The notes: generated by a model from the letters alone, not told the origin. DNA of 64,000 bases from an uncultured Nitrospiraceae bacterium (GCA_964412455.1 CAYPOT010000009.1:5179-69178), one strand, 5' to 3'; counted from the first letter of the stretch, positions 4,165 to 26,692 are shown. Program-made: numbers and translations.

Positions 4165-5262
4165 ATGAACCTTATCCCCCGCAAGAAGACTCGTTCGATC
4201 GCCCTCGGCAGCGTGAAGATCGGCTGGGGCTCGCCGGTTGCCGTCCAGTCCATGTGCAACACGGACACTCGGGACGCCGACACCACGCTCGTGCAGATCC
4301 GGCGTCTTGAAGCAGCCGGTTGCGAGATCGTCCGGCTTGCCGTGCCCGACACCGAGGCCGCGAAGGCCATCGGGAAGATCCGGAAAGGTACGACCGTTCC
4401 GCTCGTGGCCGATATCCACTTCGATCACCGGCTTGCCCTCGAAGCGGTGAAGCAGGGCGTTGATGGCCTTCGCATCAATCCGGGCAATATCGGAGGCAGG
4501 GACAAGGTCGCGGAAGTAGTGAGCGCCTGCAAGGACCGGCGTCTTCCCATTCGCATCGGGGTGAACGCGGGATCGCTCGAGAAGCACCTGCTAGAAAAGT
4601 ACGGCCACCCCACTCCTGAGGCTATCGTCGAGAGCGCGTTCGGCCATATTCGCATTCTTGAGGACCTGGATTACCGGGAGATCAAGGTCTCGCTCAAGGC
4701 GTCGGACGTTCTGACCACGGTCGAGGCCTACCGCCTGTTTGCGAAGCAGTCGGACTATCCTCTGCACATCGGCATCTCCGAGGCGGGCACGATCCACTCC
4801 GGCACGATCAAGTCGAGCGTCGGCCTCGGGATCCTGCTCGCCGAGGGCATCGGCGACACCATGCGGGTGTCGCTTACCGCGGACCCGGTCGAAGAGGTCC
4901 GCGTGGCCTACGGGATCCTTAAATCGCTCAAGATCCGTGAGCGGGGAGTGAATCTTATCTCCTGCCCCACCTGCGGCAGGACCGAGATCAATATCATCGG
5001 CCTTGCCGAAGAAGTGGAGCGCAGGCTCGGCCATATCACCGAGCCGCTCACCGTCGCGGTCATGGGCTGCGTGGTGAACGGGCCGGGCGAAGCGCGCGAG
5101 GCCGACATCGGCATCGCCGGCGGCAAAGGCGTGGGCATGCTGTTCAAGCACGGCGAGATCGTGAAAAGGTTCGACGAGAAAGAACTGGCGGATGTGCTGG
5201 TGAGGGAAGTTGAGAAGATGGTTCAATTACGTTCAAAGTTCAAGGTTCAAAGTTCAAAGTAG
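4165..5262 (+). CDS. ispG: 4-hydroxy-3-methylbut-2-enyl diphosphate synthase
   Basis: GcpE-family sequence throughout, with Fe-S cysteines in ISCPTCGRT and MGCVVNGPGE. The last ~13 codons are encoded by a GTTCAAAG-type tandem repeat. Confidence 0.92.
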   Translation: MNLIPRKKTRSIALGSVKIGWGSPVAVQSMCNTDTRDADTTLVQIRRLEAAGCEIVRLAVPDTEAAKAIGKIRKGTTVPLVADIHFDHRLALEAVKQGVDGLRINPGNIGGRDKVAEVVSACKDRRLPIRIGVNAGSLEKHLLEKYGHPTPEAIVESAFGHIRILEDLDYREIKVSLKASDVLTTVEAYRLFAKQSDYPLHIGISEAGTIHSGTIKSSVGLGILLAEGIGDTMRVSLTADPVEEVRVAYGILKSLKIRERGVNLISCPTCGRTEINIIGLAEEVERRLGHITEPLTVAVMGCVVNGPGEAREADIGIAGGKGVGMLFKHGEIVKRFDEKELADVLVREVEKMVQLRSKFKVQSSK

Positions 5263-5374: not shown

Positions 5375-5665
5375 ATGTCGACTATATCGATCAAAGGTGA
5401 TTCTTCGGAAACAGTCAGGTCACTCCTGACAAGTGCGTTGGACAGGGAAAAGCGCATTATTACTGACAGTTTGCGAACAACACGCGATAAGGTGAATGCC
5501 CTGGCAATAATGCTGTCGGTTGATGTTGAAAAGCTGATGCGGGGCGAGATCGAGCATGCTGAATCAAAGGACATGCAATTAATCGAACTCGAAGGGGAAG
5601 TCGAACTGCTCAGGCATCTTGAGACAGAGCTCAGGGAACTTGAAACCCTTGAAATATGCAGATAA
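5375..5665 (+). CDS. Small coiled-coil hypothetical protein (possible partner of the downstream TumE-like gene)
   Basis: 96-aa ORF preceded by GGAGG. Its end overlaps the next gene by 10 nt. No family recognised. Confidence 0.4.
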   Translation: MSTISIKGDSSETVRSLLTSALDREKRIITDSLRTTRDKVNALAIMLSVDVEKLMRGEIEHAESKDMQLIELEGEVELLRHLETELRELETLEICR

Positions 5666-6051
5666 AGGCATACCTTGACGGAATTCTCGATACACTTGCC
5701 GCGAATCCCCATGTGGAAGCCCAAAGTATTTCCTTTGAAGAACGCCCTCCCGATGCAGTCATCATAACAGGTATTGTCGCATTCATCGACGGCTCAAAAC
5801 TGCATATCAAAGAATTCCTGGTCCTGAAACCCGCTCATGCGGCTATCCTCAAGTATGGCTATCACTACGTGTCGAGTAAAGGTGAATTGATCTTCCGATA
5901 CGACAATGCGCTCGATCCCAAGGCGAGGGGATTGTCGACCTATCCGGAGCACAAACATGCTCCCGACGGATTAAAAGAAACCCGAAGACCATCGTGGCAG
6001 GATATTTTACGAGAAATTTCGAGCTCAATAGGCCAGTACATCAGGAAATAA
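5656..6051 (+). CDS. TumE-like (DUF6516) toxin-family protein
   Basis: YGYHY...FRYDNALDP...STYPEHKH resembles the RYDNAPHH..FPHHKH signature I recall for the TumE/DUF6516 family. Confidence 0.5.
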   Translation: MQIKAYLDGILDTLAANPHVEAQSISFEERPPDAVIITGIVAFIDGSKLHIKEFLVLKPAHAAILKYGYHYVSSKGELIFRYDNALDPKARGLSTYPEHKHAPDGLKETRRPSWQDILREISSSIGQYIRK

Positions 6052-6069
6052 AACATTTTCGGAGACCCC

Positions 6070-6171
6070 ATGCGTTATTCCCGTTTGTTCATCCCCACCC
6101 TGAAAGAAGCCCCGACCGACGCCGAGGCGGTCTCGCACAAGCTCATGGTGCGCGCGGGCTTCGTGCGATAA
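6070..6171 (+). pseudogene. Truncated duplicate of the proS 5' end (33 codons then TAA)
   Basis: [33 protein letters not shown] parallels the proS start at 13824. Segment 6112-6155 is identical to 13866-13909. Confidence 0.9.
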
Positions 6172-6210
6172 TCGGCGCCCTGCGGCAGCGTATGATGTAA
6201 ATAAATTTGA

Positions 6211-6239
6211 TTGACAATGGTTAGTATGAATATTATAAT
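6211..6239 (+). promoter_or_regulatory. Consensus sigma70-type promoter upstream of the AbrB/PIN pair
   Basis: TTGACA (6211-6216), 17-nt spacer, TATAAT (6234-6239). Confidence 0.6.
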
Positions 6240-6288
6240 AAAGTATGATATATATTTTTGAATCGTATCTGATGGCAGGAGCGGGACA

Positions 6289-6534
6289 ATGAAAACGCTG
6301 ATGAGCGAGAGGGGTCAGGTGGTGATCCCGAAAAAGATCCGGGAGACCATTCACCTCCATAAAGGCGACGAACTGGAGATCGAGGTGCGCGATGAGACGA
6401 TCGTGCTGAAGCCGCTTCGCAGGTTCAAGGCCAAAAAATGGCAGGATTACGCCGGAATCGGTGAAGGCATCGTGGCTGCCCATCTCAAGGACAAGAAGAA
6501 GGAAAAAGCCGATGAAGATGCTTATTCTCGATAG
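6289..6534 (+). CDS. AbrB/SpoVT-family antitoxin (VapB/MazE-like)
   Basis: N-terminal SERGQVVIPKKIRETIHLHKGDELEIEV swapped-hairpin motif. Overlaps the downstream PIN gene. Confidence 0.8.
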   Translation: MKTLMSERGQVVIPKKIRETIHLHKGDELEIEVRDETIVLKPLRRFKAKKWQDYAGIGEGIVAAHLKDKKKEKADEDAYSR

Positions 6535-6931
6535 CTACGCACTGCTCTGTCTTTTCGATAAAAAGCGCAGGACGGAGAAGGAAGCGATAATGTCCTATCT
6601 TGAGGATGCGGGCAAAGGCAAGGCGAAGCTTTATATCAGCAAGATCAACGAAGGTGAAGTGTTTTATAAGCTCTATAAGTATTTCGGCGCCGAGATCGCG
6701 ACCGGATTCAGGGCAGACCTCAAGCGGGGAATGTTCCCCCTGCATGTCGTGCCCGTGAATGATAAACGAATAGACGAAGCGTCCGTGATTAAGGCGAAAT
6801 ATCCGGTATCCTACGCCGACGCATTTTGCATAGAACTTGCCAGGGACATGAACCTGCCTGTGGTGACAGGTGATCCGGAATTCGAGGCTGTGAAGGACCT
6901 GATAAAGCTACAGCCGCTTGCGGAACAGTAG
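6512..6931 (+). CDS. PIN-domain toxin (VapC-like)
   Basis: MKMLILDSYAL (first acidic residue) ... EGEV ... YADAFCIELA ... VTGDPEF, a typical PIN acidic-residue pattern. Start taken at ATG 6512, overlapping the antitoxin. Confidence 0.75.
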   Translation: MKMLILDSYALLCLFDKKRRTEKEAIMSYLEDAGKGKAKLYISKINEGEVFYKLYKYFGAEIATGFRADLKRGMFPLHVVPVNDKRIDEASVIKAKYPVSYADAFCIELARDMNLPVVTGDPEFEAVKDLIKLQPLAEQ

Positions 6932-6950
6932 CTCCTATGCGGACTTTCCG

Positions 6951-7046
6951 CACGGCGAGATCGTGAAGAAGTCCGATGAGAAGGAATTGGCCGATGTGCT
7001 GGTGAGGGAAGTGGAAGATTTAGTTCGGCAAAAAAATAAAAGGTAA
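6951..7046 (+). pseudogene. Remnant of a diverged ispG 3' end (31 codons plus stop)
   Basis: HGEIVKKSDEKELADVLVREVEDLVRQKNKR* parallels the native ispG C-terminus HGEIVKRFDEKELADVLVREVEKMV (5147-5225). Confidence 0.85.
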
Positions 7047-7115
7047 GATCGTATTTCGTTTGGTGTCTCTTACATTGATAAAATGCACCAATGTTGTTTA
7101 AGAGAGATTTCAATT

Positions 7116-8435
7116 ATGAAAAAATATTATGATCCTTTATATGGTGAAATCAAGCTAGATGAGCTTGTCTTTAGTATTATTGAAAAATGTCCTGAAATAA
7201 AGCGGCTCAGATATGTCGGCCTCATGAATTTCAAATCTTTGAGCATGCTACCTTTAACAAGCATCACGAGGTTAGAACATACAATTGGTCTATCGTACCT
7301 AGCACAATTATTTGCCGACTCAAATTCTTTTTCAAAAACATCGAGGAACAATTTAATCGTCGCTTCACTTTTTCATGATGTTAACAGCGCGTCATTTGGA
7401 CATGCTATTGAATGGGCAGTGGATCGCTATACGCCTTATAACCACGAAAAGGAAACCGAGTGGTTAGCTGATAAAGAAAAGACCTCGTTTTTAAACAAAA
7501 AGCCAATATTTATTGAGCAATATGGTGTGACAAGATATGATTTGGAAAAAGAATATGGATTTAACTTGACTAAGGCTTATCAAATTATTAACGGAGTGGA
7601 TTCATTTACAATTAACAATAATGGAATAGATCTAGATAACGTTGACAACGTTTTTCGTATGGGTTTATACATGGGGCTGGAACCTTTCGAAAAGGGATGC
7701 CCTGTAAGGTTAGCCAAGAGTTTAAAGATAGTTGACGGGCGTGATAATTTTGTTATTAAAGAGGAAGCTATTGACTTAGTGATGACATGGTATCAATTAA
7801 GAGCGAATATTTACGGGAGATTTATTTACTCCGAAGAGTATATGGGTTATGAATATCTTTTATTTCAACTTATTGCTGAGTATGCAAAACACGTTGAGTT
7901 TGATAGCATAAGAAATCTTTTTAATTACACGGATGAAAATCTATTGTGGCATTTTTATGATAAGAAGAATTCGCTCCCGTCGGTAAGTAATATAGCGAGC
8001 ATGTTATTATTGCATGATATTCCTAAGACATACGCAATATTGCGCTCAGATGAATTTGACAAAAAAGAAAAACTAATTAAACCTGGAATTCTAGATGCTA
8101 TTGCCCAAAGTGTGAGTGAGTATTTGCACAATTCTAAAGAGGTTTCGAACACATCATCAGGGGAAATATTTTTGCATTTAACGACAGACGATAGAAAAAC
8201 CAACAGACAAATTGACTTTTATGTAGAGAAGAGTGGAGAAGTTGTTAAGCAATCTATAGGTTTCGATAAGAGATACATTGTTATTGGTGTATTGGGGAAA
8301 AAAAATCTGTCAGAAAAAGTAAAAACGCTAATCGCAGAAAAAACCATTGAAAAGCTTAGAAGCAGTAATTTGGGTAATTTCGATAATATTGAATTCGTCG
8401 AATCAAATGCGTTAAAGCAAAAAGTGCTATTCTAG
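7116..8435 (+). CDS. HD-domain phosphohydrolase, SAMHD1/dGTPase-like
   Basis: YDPLYGEIKL...EIKRLRYVGL...TRLEHTIGLSYLA...LFHDVNSASFGH parallels the dNTP-triphosphohydrolase N-terminal layout (H...HD). The region is AT-rich. Confidence 0.65.
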   Translation: MKKYYDPLYGEIKLDELVFSIIEKCPEIKRLRYVGLMNFKSLSMLPLTSITRLEHTIGLSYLAQLFADSNSFSKTSRNNLIVASLFHDVNSASFGHAIEWAVDRYTPYNHEKETEWLADKEKTSFLNKKPIFIEQYGVTRYDLEKEYGFNLTKAYQIINGVDSFTINNNGIDLDNVDNVFRMGLYMGLEPFEKGCPVRLAKSLKIVDGRDNFVIKEEAIDLVMTWYQLRANIYGRFIYSEEYMGYEYLLFQLIAEYAKHVEFDSIRNLFNYTDENLLWHFYDKKNSLPSVSNIASMLLLHDIPKTYAILRSDEFDKKEKLIKPGILDAIAQSVSEYLHNSKEVSNTSSGEIFLHLTTDDRKTNRQIDFYVEKSGEVVKQSIGFDKRYIVIGVLGKKNLSEKVKTLIAEKTIEKLRSSNLGNFDNIEFVESNALKQKVLF

Positions 8436-8451
8436 CCGCACCTTTTAATTT

Positions 8452-9660
8452 ATGGAAAAGAAAAAAGATATTTCGCATTTTGATTTGCTTGATTGGAATT
8501 TTACTAGAGAAGATTCGAGACTCTACTTGCACAATTTCTGTTGGTATCCTTCAAGATTCATCCCAATAATCCCAGCCCACTTAATTCAAGCCCTAAGCAA
8601 GACCAATGAAACTGTGCTGGATCCGTTTTGCGGAATAGGGACTACGTTAGTCGAGGCTTTGAAGCAGAGGCGAAATGCAATTGGCGTTGATTTAAATCCA
8701 ATCGCATGCTTTGTCTCTAAAACTAAAGGAAAAATATTGACAGGTCATAAAGTAAACCTGTCTCTAATTGAAGGCTTGTTAGAAAACCTGGCGCCGTTGA
8801 GTGGTGATGATCTATTCACAAAAAAACGCACAGGTAGAGGTCATTATAATTTACGGGAGAAGTCAATCCCAAATTACGCTGTCAATGTGGAATGGTTTCA
8901 TCCCGAAACTTTAAAAATGCTTTCGCATATATACTATTCTGTCGAAGATCTTCCGAGAGGACTTACGAGGGATATATGCAAAATATTTTTTATTTCAATT
9001 CTCATGCAGTCCTCCGGGCACGATTTGAATAAGCCATACACTTATTATGCAGACAATGTGAAGCCTAAAAAAGAAAAATTGATTAAAGACGCCTACAAAC
9101 TATATGTGCAAAAATTGGATAAATTTTTATGTGAATATAAGCTCATAGAGTTACCCGAGAAAAACAGGCTGGATTTTGCCGTATACAACGAAGATGCGAG
9201 AGGGTTAGAAGGTTTGGTGGATAAAAAAGTTGACCTTATAGTTACTTCGCCTCCGTATTTAAATGTTACTGACTATACAACTGGCTTTAGGTTAGCTCAT
9301 CTGTGGTATAGCTTTCAAAAGGATATGCGTATTGAGGACATTAAAAGAAGAGAAATTGGTGCTCGATACAGGCGGAAGTCACGTAACAGTTTAAATGAAT
9401 ATGTCGGGGATATGCAGTCAGTCCTTTGCAAAATGGACAGCGTTTTAAAGACCAATGGGTATCTTTGCTTGATTCTTGGTGAATCACAAAAATACTCCAA
9501 GATTGTGAATAAGATAATAATGGACTTTATGTCGAACGAATTGCGGTTAGAATATATTGATTCTTTTAGTCGTGAGATAATAAAAAAATTCTTCATTCAT
9601 CCAAATGGTGGGGGTGTCAGTACAGAAGAAATTATTATTTACAGAAAAAAAAGAAAGTGA
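8452..9660 (+). CDS. DNA methyltransferase (N6-A or N4-C type, SPPY catalytic motif)
   Basis: AdoMet motif VLDPFCGIGTT (about 8620-8646) and catalytic VTSPPYLNVTDY (9244-9258). Motif I precedes motif IV by about 200 aa. Confidence 0.8.
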   Translation: MEKKKDISHFDLLDWNFTREDSRLYLHNFCWYPSRFIPIIPAHLIQALSKTNETVLDPFCGIGTTLVEALKQRRNAIGVDLNPIACFVSKTKGKILTGHKVNLSLIEGLLENLAPLSGDDLFTKKRTGRGHYNLREKSIPNYAVNVEWFHPETLKMLSHIYYSVEDLPRGLTRDICKIFFISILMQSSGHDLNKPYTYYADNVKPKKEKLIKDAYKLYVQKLDKFLCEYKLIELPEKNRLDFAVYNEDARGLEGLVDKKVDLIVTSPPYLNVTDYTTGFRLAHLWYSFQKDMRIEDIKRREIGARYRRKSRNSLNEYVGDMQSVLCKMDSVLKTNGYLCLILGESQKYSKIVNKIIMDFMSNELRLEYIDSFSREIIKKFFIHPNGGGVSTEEIIIYRKKRK

Positions 9661-10766
9661 GGTGTGTCTGCGCTATGGAAAATCACATCGTCATGATGCC
9701 TAATATGATAATACCATATGGCTACGAAATAGTGCCAATTATGGCTTATCCTGCTGGTTTTATCTACAGATTTAGATTTGATGAGGAATGGCTTTCAGAT
9801 AGGATAAAAGCCGATGTGTCTTCATTGTCAGCGAAAAAGGGTTATATCGTTTTCAGAGATCCAGAAAGCGCTACGTTTTACCCCATAAGGCATATCACAA
9901 TCAAGGTGGCGCAAAGAATAGGTAAATACTATTATTTTGAATATGAATTAAATGAAATATTTGACTTTGATTCTAACGAAACATGGAGGACAAAGCAAAT
10001 AACTCAATTTAATGACTCTTTTAAGAGTTTTCATGAATCAGAGTTTAAAGACAACATTCCTGGTAAAGATATGAAGCCCCTCGTATTTTTGACTAATTTT
10101 GCACCAACCATAAATAATGAACATGTCCAATTTACAAATCCATTGGAAAATGAGTTGGAGCGATGGGGAAATATAATTTCAATTATTAAAAATATAAAGT
10201 TTTATGAAAACGTAGAATTTATAAAAATCCTTGATATAGTGCCAATGAAAAAGCGAGACGAGGAAGTGCAAGTTAAAGAGAATTATTTATTTGTACAAGA
10301 AGACGGCGATTATAAGTTGAGGATATTTCAGCTTAAGCCTAAAGGATCGGTAGAAAGGATCGAACCGAAAGATATTGAAGTAAGATCAGACGACAAATAT
10401 ATTAGCGTCATAAGAAATAAACAACGCGCAGTAGGGAAGTATGATGTGCTAAGTTTCGTTTTCCGCGTGCATGCCGGCAGTGGAGGCCAGAGAAGTTATT
10501 TAGATGTTCTACATGCTCCCAAAACAGAAGCAGCCCAGTACATTGCGCCGACACTGTATCTTCCAGTAGCTATTCAAGGAAAAAGAAAGCTAATGGTTAT
10601 AAGAATTTTATTTGCCTTTGTCTTAGTCTCATTCTATCTTTTTCCTGAGGCTATAAGTTTCATATCTGATCACAGGATTGTGAAGGATTTTGCTATGGTC
10701 CTCTTCACTATTTCTGTGATAGATATTCTGAAAGAAATACGGGACCTGTTTAAGGCGAATAGATAA
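9657..10766 (+). CDS. Hypothetical protein with C-terminal double transmembrane anchor
   Basis: 369-aa ORF (alternative ATG at 9675). Overlaps the upstream stop by 4 nt and the downstream start by 1 nt. C-terminus has LMVIRILFAFVLVSFYLF and FAMVLFTISVIDIL hydrophobic helices. No family recognised. Confidence 0.6.
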   Translation: MRCVCAMENHIVMMPNMIIPYGYEIVPIMAYPAGFIYRFRFDEEWLSDRIKADVSSLSAKKGYIVFRDPESATFYPIRHITIKVAQRIGKYYYFEYELNEIFDFDSNETWRTKQITQFNDSFKSFHESEFKDNIPGKDMKPLVFLTNFAPTINNEHVQFTNPLENELERWGNIISIIKNIKFYENVEFIKILDIVPMKKRDEEVQVKENYLFVQEDGDYKLRIFQLKPKGSVERIEPKDIEVRSDDKYISVIRNKQRAVGKYDVLSFVFRVHAGSGGQRSYLDVLHAPKTEAAQYIAPTLYLPVAIQGKRKLMVIRILFAFVLVSFYLFPEAISFISDHRIVKDFAMVLFTISVIDILKEIRDLFKANR

Positions 10767-12907
10767 TGGTTATCGTTGGCCTAAACCTTGGTTCAACAGA
10801 ATTTAATAAGAAATTACACGACGGAGGCATCTGTATTGTTGTTGATGGTAAAGTAAAATTCGCAGTGGCTGAAGAGCGTATTTCGCGCAGAAAGCGCTCA
10901 GGCGGATTCAGGGAATCACTGGACTATGCTCTTTCTTGTTTGAATTTAGATAGGAGTAATATCGATCTTGTTGTTTATTCAAGCTGTTGTGAGAGTATTA
11001 ACAATAGCATTAACATCGCAGAATTACAGAATATAAAATCAATTCCCTGTGACCATCATCTATCTCACGCTTTAAGTGTGTATCTGACATCTCCTTATGA
11101 AAAGGCACTTATTGCCGTTTTAGACGCAGGAGGAAATCTTCTCGGTAATGACAACCATAGTGACTGGTGGCTTCATTCCCGAGAGCAGCAATCATACTAT
11201 GTCGCAGAAGGGAACAATGTCACGCTAATTGATAGAGATTTTATCTTACCTGAAGCAGCAGGCATAGGGGAAATATATCGTGCCTTTACATATTATCTTG
11301 GGTGGGAATCTTCTCGATTTGCAGGCAAGACCATGGCGCTTGCCGCATATGGAGATCCTGGTGCATTTAAAGGTAACAACATATTTGACTTGGACATAAA
11401 TGGGAACATACGCTCACATATAAAAAATAATCCGATAGAGCCCTTGTCTATGGTTGAGCAGTTACTCGATAGATATGGGAGAAAAAATGTGCCTCCTCGG
11501 AAAGATGGTCAACCGATTCTACAAGTGCATAGTGATCTTGCTCGCTGGATACAAAATGAAACGGAGGACATAGTAACCGCAAAACTTAACTATTTAATGC
11601 GTAAGACAGGCATTTCTAATCTTTGTTTGGCAGGAGGAGTTGCCTATAATTGCTCGATGGTTGGAAAGATAATGAATAATACTATGGCAAATAATGTTTT
11701 TCTCCAGCCGGCATCGGGTGATCAAGGTCAATGTCTTGGCAATGCCATGTTTGGATACACTCAAATTAGAAATGCTTGGATAAGAGTTAATCCATTCAAT
11801 CCATATCTAGGATGCGGTATTGAAATAAACCATGATACAATTCGAGGCGCGTTAAAGAGTAATAATCAGGTTACAATTAATGCCCCGCGTGATATAGCAG
11901 TAACAACTGCAAAATTACTCTCGCAAGGAGAAATAGTGGCGTGGTTCCAAGATCGGAGTGAATTCGGTCCTCGTGCCTTGGGCAATCGAAGTATTCTTGC
12001 AAACCCCTGTCTTTCGAAGAGTAAGGAGAAATTGAATTCAATAAAGGGTCGTGAAGACTTTATGCCTTTTGCTCCGACTGTTCTATACGAAAGTGCAAAA
12101 GACTATTTTGTGATTTCCGATGAATGTCCTTTTATGACTGCAGCAGTTAAGGTGCGCCCAAACGTCAGAGAAACAATACCGGCAGCTGTCCATGTGGACG
12201 GAACATCTAGAGTCCAAACATTGAGAAAAGAAAATAATCCGCTATTTTACGATTTGATACATGAATTCTACAAGTTGACAAAAGTGCCATTAATTATTAA
12301 TACTTCATTCAATGCAGCTGGTGAGCCTATTGTTGAAACACTTAATAATGCAATAGACACTTTTATGAAATTAGACATAAGATTTATGGTAGCTGGTTCG
12401 TTCCTTCTGGAAAAGCCATTGGTTAGAACATCTATGCCTAGTGTCAAAGATGCAGGTCGGTTGTTGGATATTGTATTTGGGGCGGATCTGATCGTCAACG
12501 AGACGGAATTAAGTGCGCTGCTTAGTGAGCGCTTTCCGGGAATTAAATCCTTTCCTAGAGATAAATTTTTGCTCAATGAAAAATTTATTAATTGGTTAAA
12601 AAACGGCAGAAAAACGACAACCATTAGGTATAAGAAAGTGGGTATAGATTTCCCAGTGGCGACATGTTTGCCGCTAATTCCGACAAAAGATTTTTCAAAA
12701 AATCGAGGTGAAGCGCCAGTTGGCTTTTTGAAAATAAGAAAATATATAATAAAAAAATATCGGGATCTTAATGAAACAGATGCTCGTAATGATGGATTTA
12801 AAACTCTAACGGAGCTAAGAAGTGTTCTTTTCGATATCTATGGTGCTATACAAGAAGATGACTATGTTTCTATATACTATGTTCAAATAAAAAATAATCC
12901 AAGTTAA
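10766..12907 (+). CDS. NodU/CmcH/TobZ-family carbamoyltransferase fused to a C-terminal ASCH-like domain
   Basis: DHHLSHA, LDAGGN, GGVAYNC, PASGDQG, FGPRALGNRSILANP, HVDGTSRVQT and INTSFNAAGEPIV blocks match the carbamoyltransferase family. The last ~115 aa (NWLKNGRKTTTIRYKK...DDYVSIYYV) resemble ASCH. Confidence 0.8.
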   Translation: MVIVGLNLGSTEFNKKLHDGGICIVVDGKVKFAVAEERISRRKRSGGFRESLDYALSCLNLDRSNIDLVVYSSCCESINNSINIAELQNIKSIPCDHHLSHALSVYLTSPYEKALIAVLDAGGNLLGNDNHSDWWLHSREQQSYYVAEGNNVTLIDRDFILPEAAGIGEIYRAFTYYLGWESSRFAGKTMALAAYGDPGAFKGNNIFDLDINGNIRSHIKNNPIEPLSMVEQLLDRYGRKNVPPRKDGQPILQVHSDLARWIQNETEDIVTAKLNYLMRKTGISNLCLAGGVAYNCSMVGKIMNNTMANNVFLQPASGDQGQCLGNAMFGYTQIRNAWIRVNPFNPYLGCGIEINHDTIRGALKSNNQVTINAPRDIAVTTAKLLSQGEIVAWFQDRSEFGPRALGNRSILANPCLSKSKEKLNSIKGREDFMPFAPTVLYESAKDYFVISDECPFMTAAVKVRPNVRETIPAAVHVDGTSRVQTLRKENNPLFYDLIHEFYKLTKVPLIINTSFNAAGEPIVETLNNAIDTFMKLDIRFMVAGSFLLEKPLVRTSMPSVKDAGRLLDIVFGADLIVNETELSALLSERFPGIKSFPRDKFLLNEKFINWLKNGRKTTTIRYKKVGIDFPVATCLPLIPTKDFSKNRGEAPVGFLKIRKYIIKKYRDLNETDARNDGFKTLTELRSVLFDIYGAIQEDDYVSIYYVQIKNNPS

Positions 12908-12939
12908 TTAGTTGCTCTGCTAAACGACAAAACACAAAA

Positions 12940-13782
12940 ATGACGCAATTTTTGAAAGACTTGCTGCGAAACTATGGGCTCTTGTACATAACGCTTACGC
13001 AGCTTTTGAGTGAGCGACCAGGAAACAAGTATGCTTCGCTGGACGAGTACTATCACAGTCTGGGCATGCAGACGCCTGATAACCCAATGTTTTACGTGCA
13101 TCCGAGCTCGGATGGCAAAACGCGCTACTTAGACGAGGGAGAGCACGATATTGAAGCGCGTGATGATGCGGGTAACAAGGTTGGAAAAGTAGTTGGCGTT
13201 TTGGAACTTCCGGAAGACGAATTCTATTTTTTTCAAGCATTCCGTCCTGGCATGTTCGATTTAGAAAAGGATCTTCCTTCATTTCTTTTTGAAATGGCAT
13301 TAATTTATGCTAATTCTCTATTTGAAAATTACATATCTAGCATTATTCGTCTCAGGTTTCAAAAACACCCAGAACTGATGGGTGTCAATAAACAAGTGAC
13401 TTATGGTCAAGTAATTAAGAGCAATTCGAAACAAGATGTCATCGAGCACCTGATTAATCGAGAAGTCCAACAATTGATGTATGAGCCTATCGGTGCAGTA
13501 TTGGAACGAATGCGAGCAAAATACGGATTTCGAGATCTAACCACGAAGTACGACGAGGAAATAATTTATCTGTCACTTATAAGAAATTGCGTTATGCATA
13601 ATTCTCGGAAGGTTGATTCTAAGCTTGCCACCAATAAACCTAAGCTAGTATTAGGCGAAAGATTGCCTGTTGAAAAGAGTCTCGTGGACACAGCAATTCA
13701 TACTTACCGAAAATTTTGCTATGAAGTTGATATCATGTTAGAAGCTATTGGATCACTCAAACAAACAAGTGAGCCTCTATGA
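12940..13782 (+). CDS. HEPN-motif protein (putative RNase effector)
   Basis: 280-aa ORF with an Rx4H motif, IRNCVMHN (13582-13599), in an alpha-helical C-terminal half. It is the last gene of the AT-rich operon. Confidence 0.5.
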   Translation: MTQFLKDLLRNYGLLYITLTQLLSERPGNKYASLDEYYHSLGMQTPDNPMFYVHPSSDGKTRYLDEGEHDIEARDDAGNKVGKVVGVLELPEDEFYFFQAFRPGMFDLEKDLPSFLFEMALIYANSLFENYISSIIRLRFQKHPELMGVNKQVTYGQVIKSNSKQDVIEHLINREVQQLMYEPIGAVLERMRAKYGFRDLTTKYDEEIIYLSLIRNCVMHNSRKVDSKLATNKPKLVLGERLPVEKSLVDTAIHTYRKFCYEVDIMLEAIGSLKQTSEPL

Positions 13783-13823
13783 GGAATGTCGGCATATAGA
13801 AATTGCATGCACAGGGGGTATTG

Positions 13824-15518
13824 ATGCGCTACTCGAAACTGTTCATTCCTACATTAAAAGAGGCGCCGACCGACGCCGAGGCGGTCTCGCACAAGCTCAT
13901 GGTGCGCGCCGGCTTCGTGCGCCAGCTCGCGGCGGGGCTCTATATCTACCTTCCGCTGGGCATCCGGGTGATGGAGAAGATCAACCGCATTATCCGCGAG
14001 GAAATGAACGCCATCGGCGGCCAGGAAGTGACCATGCCGGTGCTGAATCCCGCCGAGGTGTGGCAGCAGACCGGGCGGTGGGATGCCATCGGCGGCGAGA
14101 TGTTCCGTCTCAAGGACCGCGGCGGCAGGGACATGTGCCTGGCCATGACCCACGAGGAGACCATGACCTGGCTCGCGGCGCACGATATCCGTTCCTACCG
14201 GGAACTGCCCCAGATCTGGTACCAGGTGCAGACGAAATTACGGGACGAAGCGCGGCCCAAGAGCGGCGTACTCCGGACGCGCGAGTTCACCATGAAGGAC
14301 TCCTACAGCTTCGACGCCGATGAGGCCGGGCTCGACCGGTCCTATCAACTTCATCTCGAGGCCTACAAGAAGATCTACTCCCGCTGCGGAATTCGATTTC
14401 ACGTGGTCCAGAGCGACACGGGCATGATGGGCGGCAGCATGGCGCACGAGTACATGGCGCCTTCTCCGGCGGGCGAGGACGACGTGGCGCTCTGCGATGG
14501 CTGCGGGTACGCGGCGAACACGGAGCTCGCGCTGTCCGTGCCGAAGGCGGCTGCATCATCGAACGACAGTTACGAGGAGATCGCTACGCCGGAACGGCGA
14601 ACCATCGACGAGGTGACCCGCTTCCTGAAGGTCACGCCGGACCGTTTGCTCAAGTCCATCCTCGTCACGACCGACCAGGGACCGCTGCTGGCGCTGGTGC
14701 GCGGCGACCAGACCCTGCATGAGAAGAAGCTGGCCAAGCTTATCGGACCCCATCGGCCCGCGCAGAAGGACGAGGTGAAGGCCGCTCTCGGCGTGCCTGT
14801 CGGATTCATCGGCCCCATGGGCCACAAGATCCGGAAGATCGCTGACCTGGTGCTGAAACAGGGGACCCACATCGCCGGCGCGAACAAGGAAGGCTTCCAT
14901 GTGAAGGGTGTCTCCGCGGACAAGCATTTCAGCGACGCCGAGTTCGCGGACATCCACACCGCGGCGGAAGGCGACGCCTGCGCCCAGTGCGGCAAGCCGC
15001 TGCGCATCGAGCGGGTCATCGAGATCGGGAACATCTTCAAGCTGGGCACCAAGTACTCCGTCCCGCTCAAGGCGAACTACCTTGACGAACAGGGGAATGA
15101 GAAGCCCATCATCATGGGGAGCTACGGCATCGGCCCGGCGCGCATCGCCGCCGCGGCCATCGAGCAGGGGAACGACGAGAACGGCATCATCTGGCCGGCG
15201 GCGATCGCGCCCTACCAGGTCCTGATCGTGCCGGTGAACGTGAAAGACCAGCGCTCCATGGACGTGGCCGAGGAGATGCACACGGCCCTTGAGGAAAAAG
15301 GGTTCGAGGCGCTCATGGACGACCGCGACGAACGGGCCGGCGTCAAGTTCAAGGACGCGGACCTTATCGGCATTCCGTACCGGGTCGTCATCGGCGAGAA
15401 GAACCTGAAGGAAGACCTGGTGGAGCTTAAGGAGCGGAAGACCGGGGTCGTGGTCAAGGTGAAGGTCGCCGACGCGGTGGCGGCGATCGTGAAGAAGATC
15501 GTGATGGAGAACGCGTAA
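13824..15518 (+). CDS. proS: Prolyl-tRNA synthetase
   Basis: Class II aaRS motifs (REFTMKDSYSF; GSYGIGPARI) with ProRS-type sequence throughout. Start at ATG 13824 ([15 protein letters not shown]). Confidence 0.93.
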   Translation: MRYSKLFIPTLKEAPTDAEAVSHKLMVRAGFVRQLAAGLYIYLPLGIRVMEKINRIIREEMNAIGGQEVTMPVLNPAEVWQQTGRWDAIGGEMFRLKDRGGRDMCLAMTHEETMTWLAAHDIRSYRELPQIWYQVQTKLRDEARPKSGVLRTREFTMKDSYSFDADEAGLDRSYQLHLEAYKKIYSRCGIRFHVVQSDTGMMGGSMAHEYMAPSPAGEDDVALCDGCGYAANTELALSVPKAAASSNDSYEEIATPERRTIDEVTRFLKVTPDRLLKSILVTTDQGPLLALVRGDQTLHEKKLAKLIGPHRPAQKDEVKAALGVPVGFIGPMGHKIRKIADLVLKQGTHIAGANKEGFHVKGVSADKHFSDAEFADIHTAAEGDACAQCGKPLRIERVIEIGNIFKLGTKYSVPLKANYLDEQGNEKPIIMGSYGIGPARIAAAAIEQGNDENGIIWPAAIAPYQVLIVPVNVKDQRSMDVAEEMHTALEEKGFEALMDDRDERAGVKFKDADLIGIPYRVVIGEKNLKEDLVELKERKTGVVVKVKVADAVAAIVKKIVMENA

Positions 15519-16234: not shown

Positions 16235-16432
16235 GTGAACCCCTTGAAAAAACTGTTTGCTGTCATGCTTTCATTGCTTATCGTAGCGGCATTCGTCTTT
16301 ATCGGCTGCGAGAAGAAACCCGAACCGCCGAAGCCCGCACCGGCCCCGGCAGTAGCACCGCCGCCTCCGGCACCAGCACCGGCCCCGGCTCCGGCCCCGG
16401 CACCCACGCCTGCGAAGCCTGCAAAGAAGTAA
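16235..16432 (+). CDS. Small lipoprotein with Pro/Ala-rich tail
   Basis: Signal peptide with lipobox (VFIGC) followed by KPEPPKPAPAPAVAPPPPAPAPAPAPAP. A terminator follows. Confidence 0.6.
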   Translation: MNPLKKLFAVMLSLLIVAAFVFIGCEKKPEPPKPAPAPAVAPPPPAPAPAPAPAPAPTPAKPAKK

Positions 16433-23459: not shown

Positions 23460-23483
23460 GGTGCCACAGAGGGAGGGTTTACC

Positions 23484-24272
23484 ATGAGTGTGTCCAGTAA
23501 AATAGGGCTCCGGATCAAAGAGCTGCGGGAAAAGGCCGATATGAGCCAGGAGTCATTGGCGCAGAAGATGAAGATGTCCCGCCCTGCCATAACGCAGATC
23601 GAGAAAGGTACGAGAAAGGTCTCTGCCGAAGAACTGGTGAACTTTTCGCAAATGTTCCACGTACCTGTTGATGGCATTTTGAATCAGGGAAAAGAGCCGG
23701 AAGTCTTTCTTCAGGAGGAAAGGGCTGCAAAGGCGGCCAAGCCGCAGATGCGTATCAGCGTTCCGCAGAAGAACCTTCAAAAGTTCAAGGAGGTGCTGTT
23801 GTACATCCTGAACAAGGTGGGCGCAAAGGAGAACATCGGCGAGACCGTCGTCTACAAGCTGCTCTACTTCATAGATTTCGATTTCTACGAGAAATATGAG
23901 GACCAGCTGGTCGGCGCCACGTACATCAAGAACAAATATGGTCCTACACCGGTCGAGTTTGCTAAGATCGTCGAGAAGATGATCAAGGACGGTGAGATCG
24001 AGAAGGTCAAGAGCGAATACTTCAAGCTCCAGCAGACCAAGTACCTGCCCCGCCGGAAGCCGGACCTCACGAAGCTCCAGGCGACCGAGATCGAGGTGAT
24101 CGACGACGTGCTGAACCGGCTCTCGGAAATGAACGCCAACCAGATCAGCGCGTACTCGCACAGCGATGTTCCCTGGATGTCGACGAAGGACGGCGAAACC
24201 ATCGATTACGAATCGGTCTTTTACCGCACGCCGCCCTATTCCGTGCGGGCCTACACGGATGAGAACGGATGA
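23484..24272 (+). CDS. XRE-HTH / Panacea (DUF4065, SocA-like) domain antitoxin
   Basis: N-terminal LRIKELREKADMSQESLAQKMKMSRPAITQIEKG HTH. C-terminal VVYKLLYFIDFDFYEKYEDQLVGATYIKNKYGPTP resembles the DUF4065/Panacea core. Confidence 0.7.
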   Translation: MSVSSKIGLRIKELREKADMSQESLAQKMKMSRPAITQIEKGTRKVSAEELVNFSQMFHVPVDGILNQGKEPEVFLQEERAAKAAKPQMRISVPQKNLQKFKEVLLYILNKVGAKENIGETVVYKLLYFIDFDFYEKYEDQLVGATYIKNKYGPTPVEFAKIVEKMIKDGEIEKVKSEYFKLQQTKYLPRRKPDLTKLQATEIEVIDDVLNRLSEMNANQISAYSHSDVPWMSTKDGETIDYESVFYRTPPYSVRAYTDENG

Positions 24273-24784
24273 GCCGATCGTTCTACAGTGAATTCGACGG
24301 GACGCTGTTTGAAAAGATCACTCATGTCCCGGAGTTCGAGAAAGATCTAAAAAAGCTCTCCAAGCGATTCTCTTCGCTCGAAAAGGACCTGCAGACCTTC
24401 ATCAAGGTCGCGATGCATCTATTTCACAAGCAGAAGATCGACAGCAATGCGATCTTTCATATATCCGATCTCGGGATCAAGTCTCCGAATATATACAAGG
24501 CCAAGAAGTTTGCGTGCCGGGCGTTGAAGGGCAAAGGAGCGCAATCGGGAATCAGGGTTATTTATGCATATCATGAGGAAGCGGATTGGGTAGAGTTTGT
24601 CGAGATTTATTATAAGGGCGATAAGGAGAGCGAGGGCAGGGAGAGGATAGCTCGAATATATGGTAAACCTCGACAGGTAGGCGGACCGCTTGCGAGCCGC
24701 AAGGCCTTGAGAGAATCGCTCCGCGCCAAAGGAAAAGCGCCGTCCGAAGTCGTGATCGCATCGAGAAAACAGGAGAGGGATTAG
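24269..24784 (+). CDS. RelE/ParE-superfamily toxin (HigB-like)
   Basis: Overlaps the antitoxin stop by 4 nt. LKGKGAQSGIRVIYAYHEEADWVEFVEIYYKGDKE matches the K(S)GGxRVIY...IYxKxxKE toxin pattern. Confidence 0.65.
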   Translation: MSRSFYSEFDGTLFEKITHVPEFEKDLKKLSKRFSSLEKDLQTFIKVAMHLFHKQKIDSNAIFHISDLGIKSPNIYKAKKFACRALKGKGAQSGIRVIYAYHEEADWVEFVEIYYKGDKESEGRERIARIYGKPRQVGGPLASRKALRESLRAKGKAPSEVVIASRKQERD

Positions 24785-24839
24785 ATGCCCTCCCTATACG
24801 TTGACACGGCGTCGCGCAGAAATTATGCTGCCAACACCC

Positions 24840-24880
24840 TTGACAATGGCTTCAAGGCTGTTGTATTATAAATACAACAG
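24840..24880 (+). promoter_or_regulatory. Promoter with overlapping palindromic operator
   Basis: TTGACA (24840-24845), 18 nt, TATTAT (24864-24869). A 9-bp inverted repeat CTGTTGTAT-N5-ATACAACAG (24858-24880) overlaps the -10 element. Confidence 0.55.
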
Positions 24881-24901
24881 TAAGTAAGGGAGGTGCTCAC
24901 C

Positions 24902-25276
24902 ATGTCAACCAAAGCGACTTTCGGGGAATTCTTCAAACAAAAAAGGATCGAGCAGAAAAAGACCTTGCGGCAATTCTGTGCGGAGAACAAGCTGGACCCC
25001 GGCAATATCAGCAAGCTCGAACGGGGGCTCATGCAACCGCCGCAGGGGAAAGACAAACTCGAAGAGTATGCCAGGTATCTTACAATCAAAAAAGGAACCG
25101 ACGACTGGTATAAGTTCTTCGATCTGGCCGCTATTGAGGCCGGCCGGATACCTGAGGAGCTGCTGAGCGATGCTAAGATGGCCGCAAATCTGCCGATCCT
25201 GTTCCGGACCTTGCGGGGAAAGAAAATATCGGAAAAGAAACTCGACGAACTGGTGGAGATGATTCGCAAGGCATAG
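24902..25276 (+). CDS. XRE-family HTH transcriptional regulator
   Basis: FGEFFKQKRIEQKKTLRQFCAENKLDPGNISKLERG helix-turn-helix. Confidence 0.7.
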   Translation: MSTKATFGEFFKQKRIEQKKTLRQFCAENKLDPGNISKLERGLMQPPQGKDKLEEYARYLTIKKGTDDWYKFFDLAAIEAGRIPEELLSDAKMAANLPILFRTLRGKKISEKKLDELVEMIRKA

Positions 25277-25339
25277 CCTATCCATTTCTCAGTCTGTTTA
25301 ATTAGGTTTTCGAAAGAATGCGTATATCCAAGTAATGAC

Positions 25340-25504
25340 ATGGCAAACCAAGCGAAAAAGACAGAGCACTCAGGATCGAAGAAAGGTTGCGGCTCATACT
25401 GGGGACGAAAGAAGGACGCAAAGACAGAAAGCAACCGCAAGCGCCGCGAAGACGGCAAGAGATTGATTCGAGAGACAGCGAGAGTATATGAACCGAAGAA
25501 ATAA
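25340..25504 (+). CDS. Possible small basic protein (54 aa)
   Basis: ATG 25340 to TAA 25502-25504, absent from the ORF track because it is under 60 aa. MANQAKKTEHSGSKKGCGSYWGRKKDAK... No family recognised. Confidence 0.2.
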   Translation: MANQAKKTEHSGSKKGCGSYWGRKKDAKTESNRKRREDGKRLIRETARVYEPKK

Positions 25505-25751
25505 ATCCAGACCACAACGCACCGCTGATGCTCTTTGCCAGAAACACAAGGTCAGCGTCACGGGGAAATCCCATGACGTTGTACTCCATGCCGATACAGA
25601 AGACGGCGGCTTCTGGGTCGAGTGCCCCTCGCTTCCCGGCTGCGACTCGCAGGGCGACGCGGTAGAGGATGCGCTAAAGATGGTGAAGGACGCCATCAAG
25701 GGACATCTGGAGGTCGCGGCAGAGCGGAAGAAGAAGAGGGCGGCCGCGTAA
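25488..25751 (+). CDS. HicB-like antitoxin (UPF0150 fold)
   Basis: VVLHADTEDGGFWVECPSLPGCDSQGDAVEDALKMVKDAIKGHLE is the classic HicB N-terminal domain pattern. The true start may be internal. Confidence 0.7.
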   Translation: MNRRNKSRPQRTADALCQKHKVSVTGKSHDVVLHADTEDGGFWVECPSLPGCDSQGDAVEDALKMVKDAIKGHLEVAAERKKKRAAA

Positions 25752-26387
25752 ATGCCCTATATTTTCATGGACGAGTCAGGCGACCTTGGATTTGATTTCA
25801 CCAAGAAAGGGACTTCGCAATATTTTCTGATTACGTTCCTGTTCAGCAACAATAAGAGGGACATTGACAAATGCGTCAAAAAGGTCCATGCGGGCTTGCG
25901 CAAACGGTATAAGAGAGTTGGCGTACTGCATGCATATAAGGATGAACCGGTAACCAAAAAGCGATTACTTTCGCTACTTGCGGAGAAGGATTGCACTATC
26001 ATGGCAATCGTGCTGAACAAGAGAAAGGTCTACACAAACCTTCAGGATGAGAAGCCGGTCCTTTACAATTACGTGACCAATATCTTGCTCGACAGGATAT
26101 TCTCAAAAAAACTGCTGCGCGGCAACGAACCAATCGAGATCATCGCCTCGCGTAAGGACACGAGCAGGTTCCTGAATTTGAACTTCAAATCCTACCTGCA
26201 GTCGCAATTGGCCAAGAATCACAATGTGACGGTAAGCGTTACGATCAAGACCCCGGCGGAAGAGAAAGCACTTCAGGCGGTGGATTTCGTGAGCTGGGCG
26301 ATATTCAGGAAGTATGAGTCGAAGGACGAAGAGTACTACAGGATCATCAAAGGGCTGATCGTCGAAGAGAAACCGTTGTTCCCCTAG
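25752..26387 (+). CDS. DUF3800-family protein
   Basis: Starts MPYIFMDESGDLGF and ends ...ALQAVDFVSWAIFRKYE, the two DUF3800 hallmark blocks. Its ATG directly abuts the HicB stop codon. Confidence 0.7.
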   Translation: MPYIFMDESGDLGFDFTKKGTSQYFLITFLFSNNKRDIDKCVKKVHAGLRKRYKRVGVLHAYKDEPVTKKRLLSLLAEKDCTIMAIVLNKRKVYTNLQDEKPVLYNYVTNILLDRIFSKKLLRGNEPIEIIASRKDTSRFLNLNFKSYLQSQLAKNHNVTVSVTIKTPAEEKALQAVDFVSWAIFRKYESKDEEYYRIIKGLIVEEKPLFP

Positions 26388-26484
26388 AAACAACAAAGCC
26401 CCGTTCGCTAGTTTCGAGGCGCCCTGCGGTACCCCACGAACGAGGACTTACTTGTTGCTATTATGATAATGCAGGGGCGGAAGT

Positions 26485-26692
26485 ATGTCAAGGGTTTTGA
26501 GCAGTTTAATTCTCGGTCCGAGTGCAGCATAAAGGCTGGCGCGGCAGTCATGTGAAGCTGATGAAACCGGGTAATCCCGTCATTTTGTCGATCCCCCTGC
26601 ACAAGGGGAAACCGGTCAAGAAAGGCTTGCTGGTTGCTCAGGTCAAGAAGGCGGGGATGACGGTGGAGGAGTTCTTAAAATTGTACAAATAA
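26485..26692 (+). pseudogene. HicA-like toxin, apparently frameshifted
   Basis: Frame ending at 26692 reads FSVRVQHKGWRGSHVKLMKPGNPVILSIPLHKGKPVKKGLLVAQVKKAGMTVEEF (HicA GSHxxL core). The N-terminal ATG (26485) is in a different frame and stops at 26530-26532. Confidence 0.5.

Follow-up and report, generated by a model that had tools for sequence, protein, structure and literature searches.

A conserved four-gene operon with a carbamoyltransferase-ASCH fusion as a candidate defence-type system in an uncultured Nitrospiraceae bacterium

Introduction

According to the summary of TobZ chemistry given by Yang et al. (eLife 2021; PMC8670742), a YrdC-like domain forms carbamoyl-AMP and a Kae1-like domain transfers the carbamoyl group, and the same paper describes a phage carbamoyltransferase that acts on 5-hydroxymethylcytosine (5hmC) in single-stranded DNA, in RNA and in the nucleotide 5hmdCTP. 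Here we compare this and other described systems with a gene in a 64,000-nucleotide (nt) stretch of DNA from an uncultured Nitrospiraceae bacterium (GCA_964412455.1 CAYPOT010000009.1:5179-69178; the whole stretch is called the window below), which encodes a carbamoyltransferase (CTase) fused to a C-terminal ASCH domain, and with the operon to which this CTase-ASCH gene belongs. In the literature searched, no paper was found in which a carbamoyltransferase is connected with defence against phages or with an ASCH domain.

The reference for the ASCH part is YqfB, an amidohydrolase of N4-acetylcytidine (ac4C). Its activity depends strictly on Lys21, Thr24 and Arg26, falls 100- to 1000-fold in Glu74Ala and survives in Thr24Ser, with further contributions from His70 and Tyr89 (PMC6972931). 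YqfB also cleaves the N4-carbamate capecitabine and an N4-acyl-dCTP, and 19 of 19 ASCH proteins tested in a 2026 preprint strip ac4C from tRNA (bioRxiv 10.64898/2026.02.27.708502). ASCH genes are also found in an operon type described by Bell et al. (2020; PMC7641849) as "(PIN)-GNAT-EVE + ASCH + AAA_17", for which these authors relay an earlier prediction that a base is acylated.

Results

The CTase-ASCH gene is the last of four genes on the same strand, in the order HD hydrolase, DNA methyltransferase (MTase), protein X and CTase-ASCH, and this conserved operon, missed in the first-pass annotation of the window, is the main finding of the present analysis. The gene of protein X overlaps the MTase gene by 4 nt and the CTase-ASCH gene by 1 nt. 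Mapping with tblastn led to the same HD-MTase-X-CTase-ASCH order in the window and in 10 further independent loci at 34-58% identity (where needed, single loci are given by an L number; L009 is cut by the contig end in the CTase and L012 in X). Among the hosts are metagenome-assembled genomes (MAGs) of Syntrophobacterales, Patescibacteria, Gammaproteobacteria, Sedimenticola, Thermodesulfovibrionales, Rariloculaceae and Mariprofundaceae, with metagenome contigs in addition. The four genes are a horizontally mobile, translationally coupled operon. X adjoins the CTase in the loci with this order and also in L005, L017 and L020, and the invariant core of the system is X + CTase + ASCH.

The CTase-ASCH open reading frame (ORF; gene 4, positions 10766..12907, + strand) encodes 713 amino acids (aa). 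Its first part is a Kae1-like acceptor/transfer domain (aa 1-328; 10766..11749, +), matched by Carbam_trans_N (PF02543) in Pfam at aa 95-328 (E 1.8e-38; 133.3 bits, cut-off 24), followed by a YrdC-like domain of the carbamoyl-adenylate-forming type (aa 382-550; 11909..12415, +), matched by Carbam_trans_C (PF16861) over the same residues with the whole model covered (E 4.8e-64; 215.4 bits, cut-off 27). Both Pfam domains lie above their gathering thresholds and follow each other in N-to-C order, as in the NodU/CmcH/TobZ family. PHROG 1601 ('Nol-like carbamoyltransferase') matched the protein with E 1.5e-109, the top NCBIfam match was NodU with a score far under its cut-off, and library scans gave weak matches of TsaD and Sua5/YrdC to the CTase part. 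Among solved proteins, NovN (9s2t, E 1e-71), GdmN and TobZ are nearest to the first 555 aa. Because conservation in 68 full-length homologues is at least 97% both for the Kae1-like metal ligands (H97/H98/H101, D120 and D319) and for the YrdC-like adenylation blocks (EFGPRALGNRS, K427/R429, R482 and NTSFN), the CTase part is very likely catalytically competent and an active enzyme. The metal-site and adenylation motifs align with NovN, and numbered residues of TobZ are presumably their counterparts. Directly after the metal-binding Asp, the acceptor domain carries a clade-specific insertion (…WW…REQxSY[YF]; ..DWW..REQxSYY in the window), which is common to the fused and split CTases of the clade, stands opposite a gap in the NovN alignment and is missing from the phage 5hmC enzyme.

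A linker of about 45 aa (aa 551-595; 12416..12550, +) joins the CTase to the ASCH domain. In the alignment of the 68 homologues almost none of its columns is conserved to 50% or more, and since these residues are essentially unconserved, the ASCH domain would be a tethered module on a flexible linker. The fusion recurs in at least 66 homologues with 35-55% identity, and an identical CTase-ASCH protein was found on three independent contigs; the architecture is therefore neither a one-off nor an assembly artefact. No phage record carrying the fusion was found.

The tail itself (aa 596-713 and stop; 12551..12907, +) was assigned as a YqfB-type ASCH domain from Pfam, profile search, structure model and fold search. 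In Pfam, ASCH (PF04266) matched aa 605-700 with E 4.9e-6 and 27.6 bits at a cut-off of 21.2, and the same match is precomputed for most of the fused homologues. A single-sequence phmmer search of the tail against the PDB gave noise only (ORC5, histones). A profile of 38 tails ranked YqfB (1te7) and an "N4-acetylcytidine amidohydrolase" (9kyf) at the top, with an alignment across the whole domain but a weak E-value (0.02). For aa 596-713, AlphaFold with the alignment of the 38 tails as input gave a model with a predicted local distance difference test (pLDDT) of 93.9 and a predicted TM-score (pTM) of 0.86. Foldseek of this model against the PDB led to YqfB, ASCH-named entries or uncharacterised hypothetical proteins on ranks 1-17, with YqfB in the presence or absence of ac4C on ranks 1-3 and 9kyh (YqfB + ac4C) as the best match (probability 1.0, target TM-score 0.82). 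The tail thereby superposes on solved ASCH proteins as a PUA-like beta-barrel. In the profile alignment, K616, T619, R621, D676 and Y692 fall on YqfB K21, T24, R26, E74 and Y89, respectively, and are present in 65, 63 (plus two with Ser), 64, 65 and 65 of 66 tails; the position of YqfB His70 is occupied by D672, again in 65 of the 66. The five aligned positions thus cover the catalytic triad of Lys, Thr and acid, the Arg that forms the oxyanion hole and the Tyr at the substrate.

From these residues, the ASCH tail is probably an enzyme rather than merely a reader, or at least possesses an N4-acyl-cytosine pocket. It is more likely an independent hydrolase or eraser module, because the YqfB catalytic set is complete, the linker is unconserved and ASCH is a separate gene in some relatives. 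The fusion of a CTase to an ASCH-like domain had been proposed in the first-pass annotation and is confirmed by the peptide blocks quoted there, all of which occur in the translation, by the three Pfam domains and by the fused homologues. The PUA/ASCH fold expected for the C-terminal region was likewise recovered in the structure prediction and its match to YqfB-ac4C. The suggested role of the domain as a modified-base reader has fared worse, as a passive reader is unlikely to have kept the complete catalytic apparatus of YqfB on a separable module.

Gene 1 (7083..8435, +) encodes a SAMHD1-like HD hydrolase of 450 aa; with the start at 7116 chosen by another gene caller, the protein has 439 aa. 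Pfam HD matched it with E 1e-5, and in a phmmer search against the PDB SAMHD1 took every one of the first 25 ranks (top E 3.9e-7); the alignment over aa 5-130 includes the DPxxGxI, RxEHxxG and HD motifs. Orthologues of 42-51% identity occupy the same position in the 10 further cassettes. PADLOC, PHROGs and NCBIfam contained no match for the HD protein, nor for a 280-aa protein encoded downstream of the cassette.

Gene 2 (8452..9660, +; 402 aa) encodes the DNA MTase, matched by Pfam N6_N4_Mtase (E 3.7e-20) and, in full length, by PADLOC MTase_II (E 2.3e-37). Motif I (DPFCGxGT) precedes motif IV (TSPPYL), and both are invariant in the 10 orthologues. SPPY is motif IV of the cytosine-N4 MTase N4CMT, while the adenine-N6 MTase CcrM has DPPY (PMC10406627). 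The motif is thus suggestive of an N4-cytosine target, without being proof of it.

Gene 3 (9657..10766, +; alternative start at 9675) encodes protein X with 369 aa, which belongs to no known family: the libraries Pfam, PADLOC, PHROGs and NCBIfam gave no match, and profile searches of X found nothing. The structure model of X was confident (pLDDT 89.4). In its N-terminal part, aa 10-125 form a β1-α-β2-β5 barrel with a helix after it; aa 188-307 form a β-sandwich, and two long helices make up the C-terminal part. The hydrophobic character of these helices is shared by nearly all orthologues (Kyte-Doolittle means over 19 residues of approximately 2.0-2.7 and 1.2-2.0). Foldseek matched only the middle domain, to Ig-like folds (RhoGDI, CARDB, PapD-like). 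As the barrel had no match of its own there and the profile searches remained empty, we call it PUA/EVE-like only tentatively. An exhaustive profile search among 1.84 billion clusters led to 740 representative clusters of the X family at E<=1e-3 and 131 at E<=1e-30. Strict patterns from the X alignment found only 6 loci among about 185,000 species genomes, in a search that misses the actinomycete and other divergent X genes. The X family is real but rare. No Pfam fusion domains were found in its longer members. Promoter and terminator scans across the operon gave results no better than those for shuffled sequence.

Variants of the cassette differ in the partners around the core. In L005 (Nonomuraea) only X and CTase-ASCH are present, and the homology of this X was confirmed by hhalign (probability 100%, E 3.6e-45); in L020, X is followed by a CTase-ASCH of 717 aa. 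L017 and L018 have a true split, with a CTase of 556 aa and an ASCH gene of its own in a different frame; here NUDIX stands in place of HD and MTase, and an X-like gene is kept. More distant relatives of X were observed with other partners or architectures: in L021 (626-2368) one is followed by a P-loop gene resembling deoxynucleoside kinase (dNK), thymidylate kinase and AAA_28, and in L019 (6001-7698) an X-like protein of 565 aa, whose C-terminal half has no assignment, stands alone between a RES-Xre toxin-antitoxin (TA) pair, GmrSD and an integrase. X may be a module that is reused with nucleotide-acting enzymes of different kinds. With the exception of the DNA MTase, all accessory genes come from nucleotide-hydrolysing or nucleotide-phosphorylating families.

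A separate observation concerns L014 (8001-10184), where the CTase (557 aa) and ASCH (167 aa) of an otherwise complete cassette are called as two genes. We do not count this locus as a gene fission, since ASCH is in frame with the CTase across one stop codon, which may reflect a nonsense mutation, a sequencing error or programmed read-through.

Free-standing relatives of the ASCH tail were detected when plasmids of cultured bacteria were searched with it, which led to five rhizobial "ASCH domain-containing proteins". The Sinorhizobium protein aligned with the tail profile in full length (hhalign probability 99.6%, E 4.6e-24, 30% identity over 118 columns). In the two plasmids examined, L025 and L026, genes for a further ASCH protein, for a small ATPase and for a GNAT protein of roughly 500 aa adjoin the ASCH gene. 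The GNAT protein of L025 contains a PIN domain in addition, and the ATPase of this plasmid was assigned to AAA_17 by Pfam. Because these nearest free-standing relatives adjoin PIN-GNAT acyltransferases, the ASCH subfamily repeatedly partners an acyl-transferring enzyme, for acetyl in the case of GNAT or for carbamoyl in the case of the TobZ type. A comparison of X with the PIN-GNAT protein found no sequence relation. The PIN-GNAT/ASCH operon of L025 (13386-14735; NZ_CP120375.1) lies near a gene annotated as 7-cyano-7-deazaguanine synthase (QueC-like) and near an AbiEii toxin, in a plasmid region rich in base-modification and defence genes.

Cassettes in unrelated genomes recurrently adjoin known defence or mobile genes, L010 and L005 being weaker cases. 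L001 and L013 lie beside type ISP restriction-modification genes, L013 also beside a PD-(D/E)XK nuclease. Neighbours of L003 are an integrase, a ResIII helicase and a large MTase, and those of L017 are HsdR, Lamassu-type genes (LmuB_C, CTD7, MC3), Hachiman (HamA and helicase) and transposases, whereas L010 has an S24 repressor resembling LexA. L008 is flanked by type I HsdM/HsdS and Hypoth_Ymh on one side and by phage portal, protease and capsid genes on the other. These phage genes (L008 13342-17805) begin directly downstream of the cassette and encode a portal protein fused to a Mu F-like domain, a prohead protease and the major capsid protein; this cassette may ride on a prophage or phage satellite. 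No biosynthetic (polyketide synthase, non-ribosomal peptide synthetase, sugar or aminoglycoside), glycosyltransferase or export genes stand beside the cassette in any of the annotated neighbourhoods, so that the architecture is not confined to clusters for small molecules, the finding that the first-pass annotation had regarded as fatal to its view of the substrate. Because the neighbours are nucleic-acid or nucleotide enzymes and defence or mobile genes, with no biosynthetic genes among them, a nucleotide or polynucleotide substrate appears the better bet.

In the window, the cassette lies between ispG and proS, within the housekeeping run dxr-rseP-ispG-proS, and the GC content falls from about 0.60 to 0.36-0.42 across 7000-13800. 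A duplicate of the ispG 3' end forms the left border of this island (6950..7026, +; 83% identical to the original at 5148-5224), and the proS 5' end forms the right border (13824..13921, +), with an 85%-identical copy at 6070-6167. The resulting order is ispG-3', TumE module, proS-5' fragment, MazE-PIN, ispG-3' fragment, cassette and proS. The duplicated borders fit a single crossover of the Campbell type by a circularised ispG-proS segment that came from a related genome, and the ispG-proS gap may be a recombination-driven hotspot for cargo; no integrase was found in the island. Directly upstream of the cassette, two TA-type modules (5656-6931, +) consist of a TumE-family toxin (5656-6051) and of a MazE/AbrB antitoxin with a PIN toxin (6289-6931).

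The downstream neighbour is the 280-aa protein mentioned above (12940..13782, +), which starts 33 nt past the CTase-ASCH stop inside the low-GC island, has no Pfam match and lies outside the conserved cassette. Its family of 26 members has an invariant R215-N-C-x-x-H220-N motif (RNCxxHN, a HEPN-like Rx4H), which fits the Rx4-6H signature of HEPN RNases. A relative in L024 occurs alone and adjoins BrnT/BrnA and a GmrSD_C gene. The protein was rejected as a member of the system, being absent from all other cassettes, and it is also unrelated to the 272-aa protein encoded downstream of the cassette in L017; it is probably an independent toxin or defence gene.

Elsewhere in the window, a second defence-type island of lower GC content (45-51%) was observed at about 23480-31410. 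It contains an HTH-SocA/Panacea antitoxin (23484-24272) followed by an ORF of 171 aa, a DUF3800 protein (25752-26387), a 948-aa fusion of an Mrr_cat_2 nuclease with a ResIII/DEAD helicase (27723-30569) and a DUF5677 protein (30608-31408). A small ORF of 65 aa at 16235-16432 (+) has a hydrophobic, lipoprotein-like N-terminus ending in Cys (…AAFVFIGC) and a low-complexity tail rich in Pro and Ala (PAPAPA…), and no Pfam match was obtained for it.

Discussion

We tentatively propose that the cassette is a hitherto undescribed conflict or defence-type module for the carbamoylation of a cytosine, whether in DNA, in RNA or in a (d)CTP-type nucleotide, with the exocyclic N4 as the most likely site. 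We would put this composite model at somewhat less than an even chance. The YrdC-like domain would make carbamoyl-AMP from carbamoyl phosphate and ATP, and the Kae1-like domain would pass the carbamoyl group to the acceptor, making the CTase the writer; the ASCH domain could then act as the matching eraser, proofreader or product reader of N4-acyl-cytosine. The HD enzyme, or NUDIX in its place, might police the nucleotide pool, the MTase might supply a self mark on cytosine N4, and X could be a membrane-bound sensor or effector. The analysis itself establishes which domains are present, that their motifs are intact, the gene order of the operon, its setting in an island and the kinship of the ASCH subfamily with partners of GNAT acyltransferases. 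We infer the acceptor atom, the nucleic-acid target, the logic of writer and eraser, a phenotype in defence and what HD, MTase and X each do. A cytosine acceptor, likely at N4, is suggested because the only chemistry demonstrated for the partner ASCH family is on cytosine N4, because the same ASCH subfamily partners acyltransferases, because the co-operonic MTase has the N4-type SPPY motif, because the homologous machinery for N6-threonylcarbamoyladenosine (t6A) makes a ureido bond on an exocyclic base amine, and because activity on cytosine derivatives in DNA, RNA and a dNTP is proven for one member of the TobZ family. The most specific version, in which the four-gene operon would be a new anti-phage or anti-plasmid system built on N4-carbamoylcytosine, a nucleic-acid mark so far undescribed, written by the CTase, erased or proofread by ASCH, told from self by N4-methylation and read out via X and HD, must be considered unlikely in all its parts together.

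Several observations weigh against the proposed carbamoylation of cytosine for defence. N4, or even a base, as the acceptor is a supposition, the nearest solved relatives NovN, GdmN and TobZ being O-carbamoyltransferases, and fusing a writer to its own eraser would seem futile if the two were not regulated. PADLOC 2.0 matched only the MTase, by generic MTase_II models, and neither HD, X and CTase-ASCH nor the 280-aa protein; as it lists no gene of the operon besides the MTase, defence is deduced from the neighbourhood alone. The genomes found with the cassette are all MAGs or metagenome contigs, with the exception of the actinomycete two-gene form. L015 (Streptosporangiaceae) has no X upstream, where only decayed integrase-like ORFs are present. 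Finally, the actinomycete and NUDIX variants have no MTase, and because of this, methylation is not essential to the core.

The substrate could also be a free nucleotide. ASCH would then bind a cytidine nucleotide and the CTase would O-carbamoylate it, for example at a sugar hydroxyl, to give an antiviral chain terminator or a signal; X would bind the product and act via its membrane helices in an abortive infection, and HD or NUDIX would degrade or limit the product. The variable partners speak for such a substrate, since all of them act on free nucleotides (the SAMHD1-like HD, NUDIX and the dNK/thymidylate-kinase-like P-loop protein near a distant X), and an O-carbamoylation is what NovN, GdmN and TobZ perform. 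Moreover, the phage enzyme accepts 5hmdCTP and YqfB works on nucleosides and an N4-acyl-dCTP, while X ends in hydrophobic helices and the two-gene core of X and CTase-ASCH suffices in actinomycetes. Membrane effectors of signalling defence systems likewise end in hydrophobic helices. Left unexplained are the full-length DNA MTase, conserved in the window and 10 loci, and the retained hydrolase residues of ASCH, and the family has no cyclase-like or other signal-generating precedent. We regard this explanation as possible but rather unlikely.

In a third explanation, the cassette is a host counter-measure or a captured phage function in which the CTase O-carbamoylates 5hmC in phage DNA or 5hmdCTP, and ASCH, together with X if this is indeed EVE-like, reads the modified cytosine. 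This would agree with the 5hmC specificity of the one TobZ-family member for which activity on nucleic acids has been shown, with the X-like gene adjoining GmrSD, with the cassette adjoining phage structural genes, and with the sensing of 5-methylcytosine (5mC) and 5hmC in type IV restriction enzymes by domains of the PUA superfamily, EVE among them (PMC7897488). Yet the identity to the phage enzyme is only 27% and confined to the C-terminal half, where the canonical GNRS of the window protein is replaced by CNTT in the phage enzyme. There is also no hydroxymethylase in any cassette and no phage record with the fusion, and the conserved ASCH residues point to an N4-acyl group and not to a substituent at C5. 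A 5hmC substrate is therefore quite improbable.

We give an equally slim chance to a toxin-like module acting on RNA, in which ASCH strips ac4C from tRNA and the CTase carbamoylates a tRNA base, so that translation stops during infection. The 19 ASCH proteins that erase ac4C from tRNA and the activity of the phage CTase on RNA are in line with it, as are the nature of the CTase as a Kae1-like and YrdC-like fusion with weak TsaD and Sua5/YrdC matches and the discussion of related GNAT operons as targeting aminoacyl-tRNA. RNA N2-methylguanosine (m2G) enzymes carry (D/N)PPY. The co-operonic MTase, with SPPY, instead matches DNA MTase models in full length. The SAMHD1-like and NUDIX partners in turn suggest nucleotides, and neither tRNA genes nor RNA-binding modules are present.

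An ordinary O-carbamoyltransferase tailoring a small molecule or polysaccharide, with ASCH as an accessory unrelated to the choice of substrate, is very improbable: the nearest solved structures are the antibiotic-tailoring NovN, GdmN and TobZ and the best NCBIfam match, far below its cut-off, is NodU, but no biosynthetic, glycosyltransferase or export genes lie beside the cassette in the annotated neighbourhoods, the acceptor domain of the clade has a distinctive insertion, and the linkage to X, HD, MTase and ASCH is kept across phyla.

Returning to the carbamoylation of cytosine, the idea of the first-pass annotation that a polynucleotide or nucleotide substrate would form a new substrate class for the family was pre-empted by the 5hmC carbamoyltransferase (PMC8670742, 2021), and Kae1/TsaD with Sua5/TsaC make t6A on tRNA. 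Of that interpretation as a whole, the fusion, the ASCH fold and, as the better bet, a nucleotide or polynucleotide substrate have stood, while the new substrate class and the passive reader have not. Conflict systems that modify nucleic acids or nucleotides and base carbamoyltransferases of the TobZ family are already known. The apparent novelty lies in the clade of fusions, which has an acceptor-domain insertion of its own, in X as its obligate partner and in the operon of four genes as a candidate for a defence-type system.

If the proposal is true, carbamoylation would join methylation, phosphorothioation, 7-deazaguanine insertion and ADP-ribosylation among the bacterial conflict chemistries on nucleic acids or nucleotides, and the widespread ASCH amidohydrolases would gain a second physiological partner besides acetyltransferases. 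The pair would also be a compact writer and eraser and, given the resistance of carbamoylated cytosine to deamination by APOBEC (PMC8670742), might serve as a tool. Irrespective of the mechanism, the HD-MTase-X-CTase-ASCH operon and the X family with its approximately 740 representatives are absent from PADLOC 2.0 and thus represent a concrete, testable candidate system.

Comparison with known systems

The phage 5hmC carbamoyltransferase, which uses carbamoyl phosphate and ATP, is like CTase-ASCH a two-domain enzyme of the TobZ/NodU family (PMC8670742). It has 554 aa and no ASCH domain, compared to 713 aa with ASCH in the window; the 27% identity between the two extends over 271 aa of the C-terminal half only, with the GNRS/CNTT difference noted above. 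The phage gene lies beside thymidylate-synthase-like, MazG-like and deaminase genes (PMC8670742), whereas CTase-ASCH lies in a bacterial island with HD, MTase and X. A dCMP hydroxymethylase of the thymidylate-synthase-like type was found neither in the window nor in any cassette.

Of the solved structures, TobZ (3ven), NovN (9s2t) and GdmN (7vzq) match CTase-ASCH best in sequence (E 1e-49 to 1e-71), and they share its Kae1-like and YrdC-like domains as well as the metal and adenylation motifs. They are antibiotic-tailoring enzymes of biosynthetic clusters and have neither the ASCH tail nor the WW/REQ insertion. For the tail, the amidohydrolases of the YqfB type (1te7, 9kyf, 9kyh) have the same fold and the motifs GRKxxTIR, DxxxDGF and IY in common with it. 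These proteins are free-standing, consist of about 100 aa and act on ac4C nucleosides and tRNA, whereas the tail is fused or adjacent to a carbamoyltransferase, has Asp instead of Glu as the acid and Asp in place of His70, and shows an identity of about 22%.

The PIN-GNAT-EVE + ASCH operons resemble the cassette in the ASCH subfamily, in the acyl transferase beside ASCH and in their location in mobile or defence regions. They are uncharacterised, have a GNAT enzyme with acetyl-CoA and no HD, MTase or X, in contrast to the cassette with its TobZ-type CTase and no GNAT.

Both catalytic folds of the CTase are homologous to those of the t6A machinery (TsaD/Kae1 and TsaC/Sua5), whose chemistry follows an acyl-adenylate route and ends in a ureido linkage on the exocyclic base amine of a polynucleotide. 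This machinery is universal and housekeeping, transfers threonylcarbamoyl to A37 of tRNA, and consists of separate proteins for the two folds with partner subunits and no ASCH. A pairing of opposed activities is also known from DarT and DarG, where DarG is a hydrolase encoded with DarT that reverses the DarT mark. DarT2 is described as an antiphage toxin that ADP-ribosylates DNA (PMC13368585). The logic of writer and eraser would be alike in DarT/DarG and CTase-ASCH, whereas folds and chemistry are unrelated, making the proposed resemblance one of analogy and not of homology.

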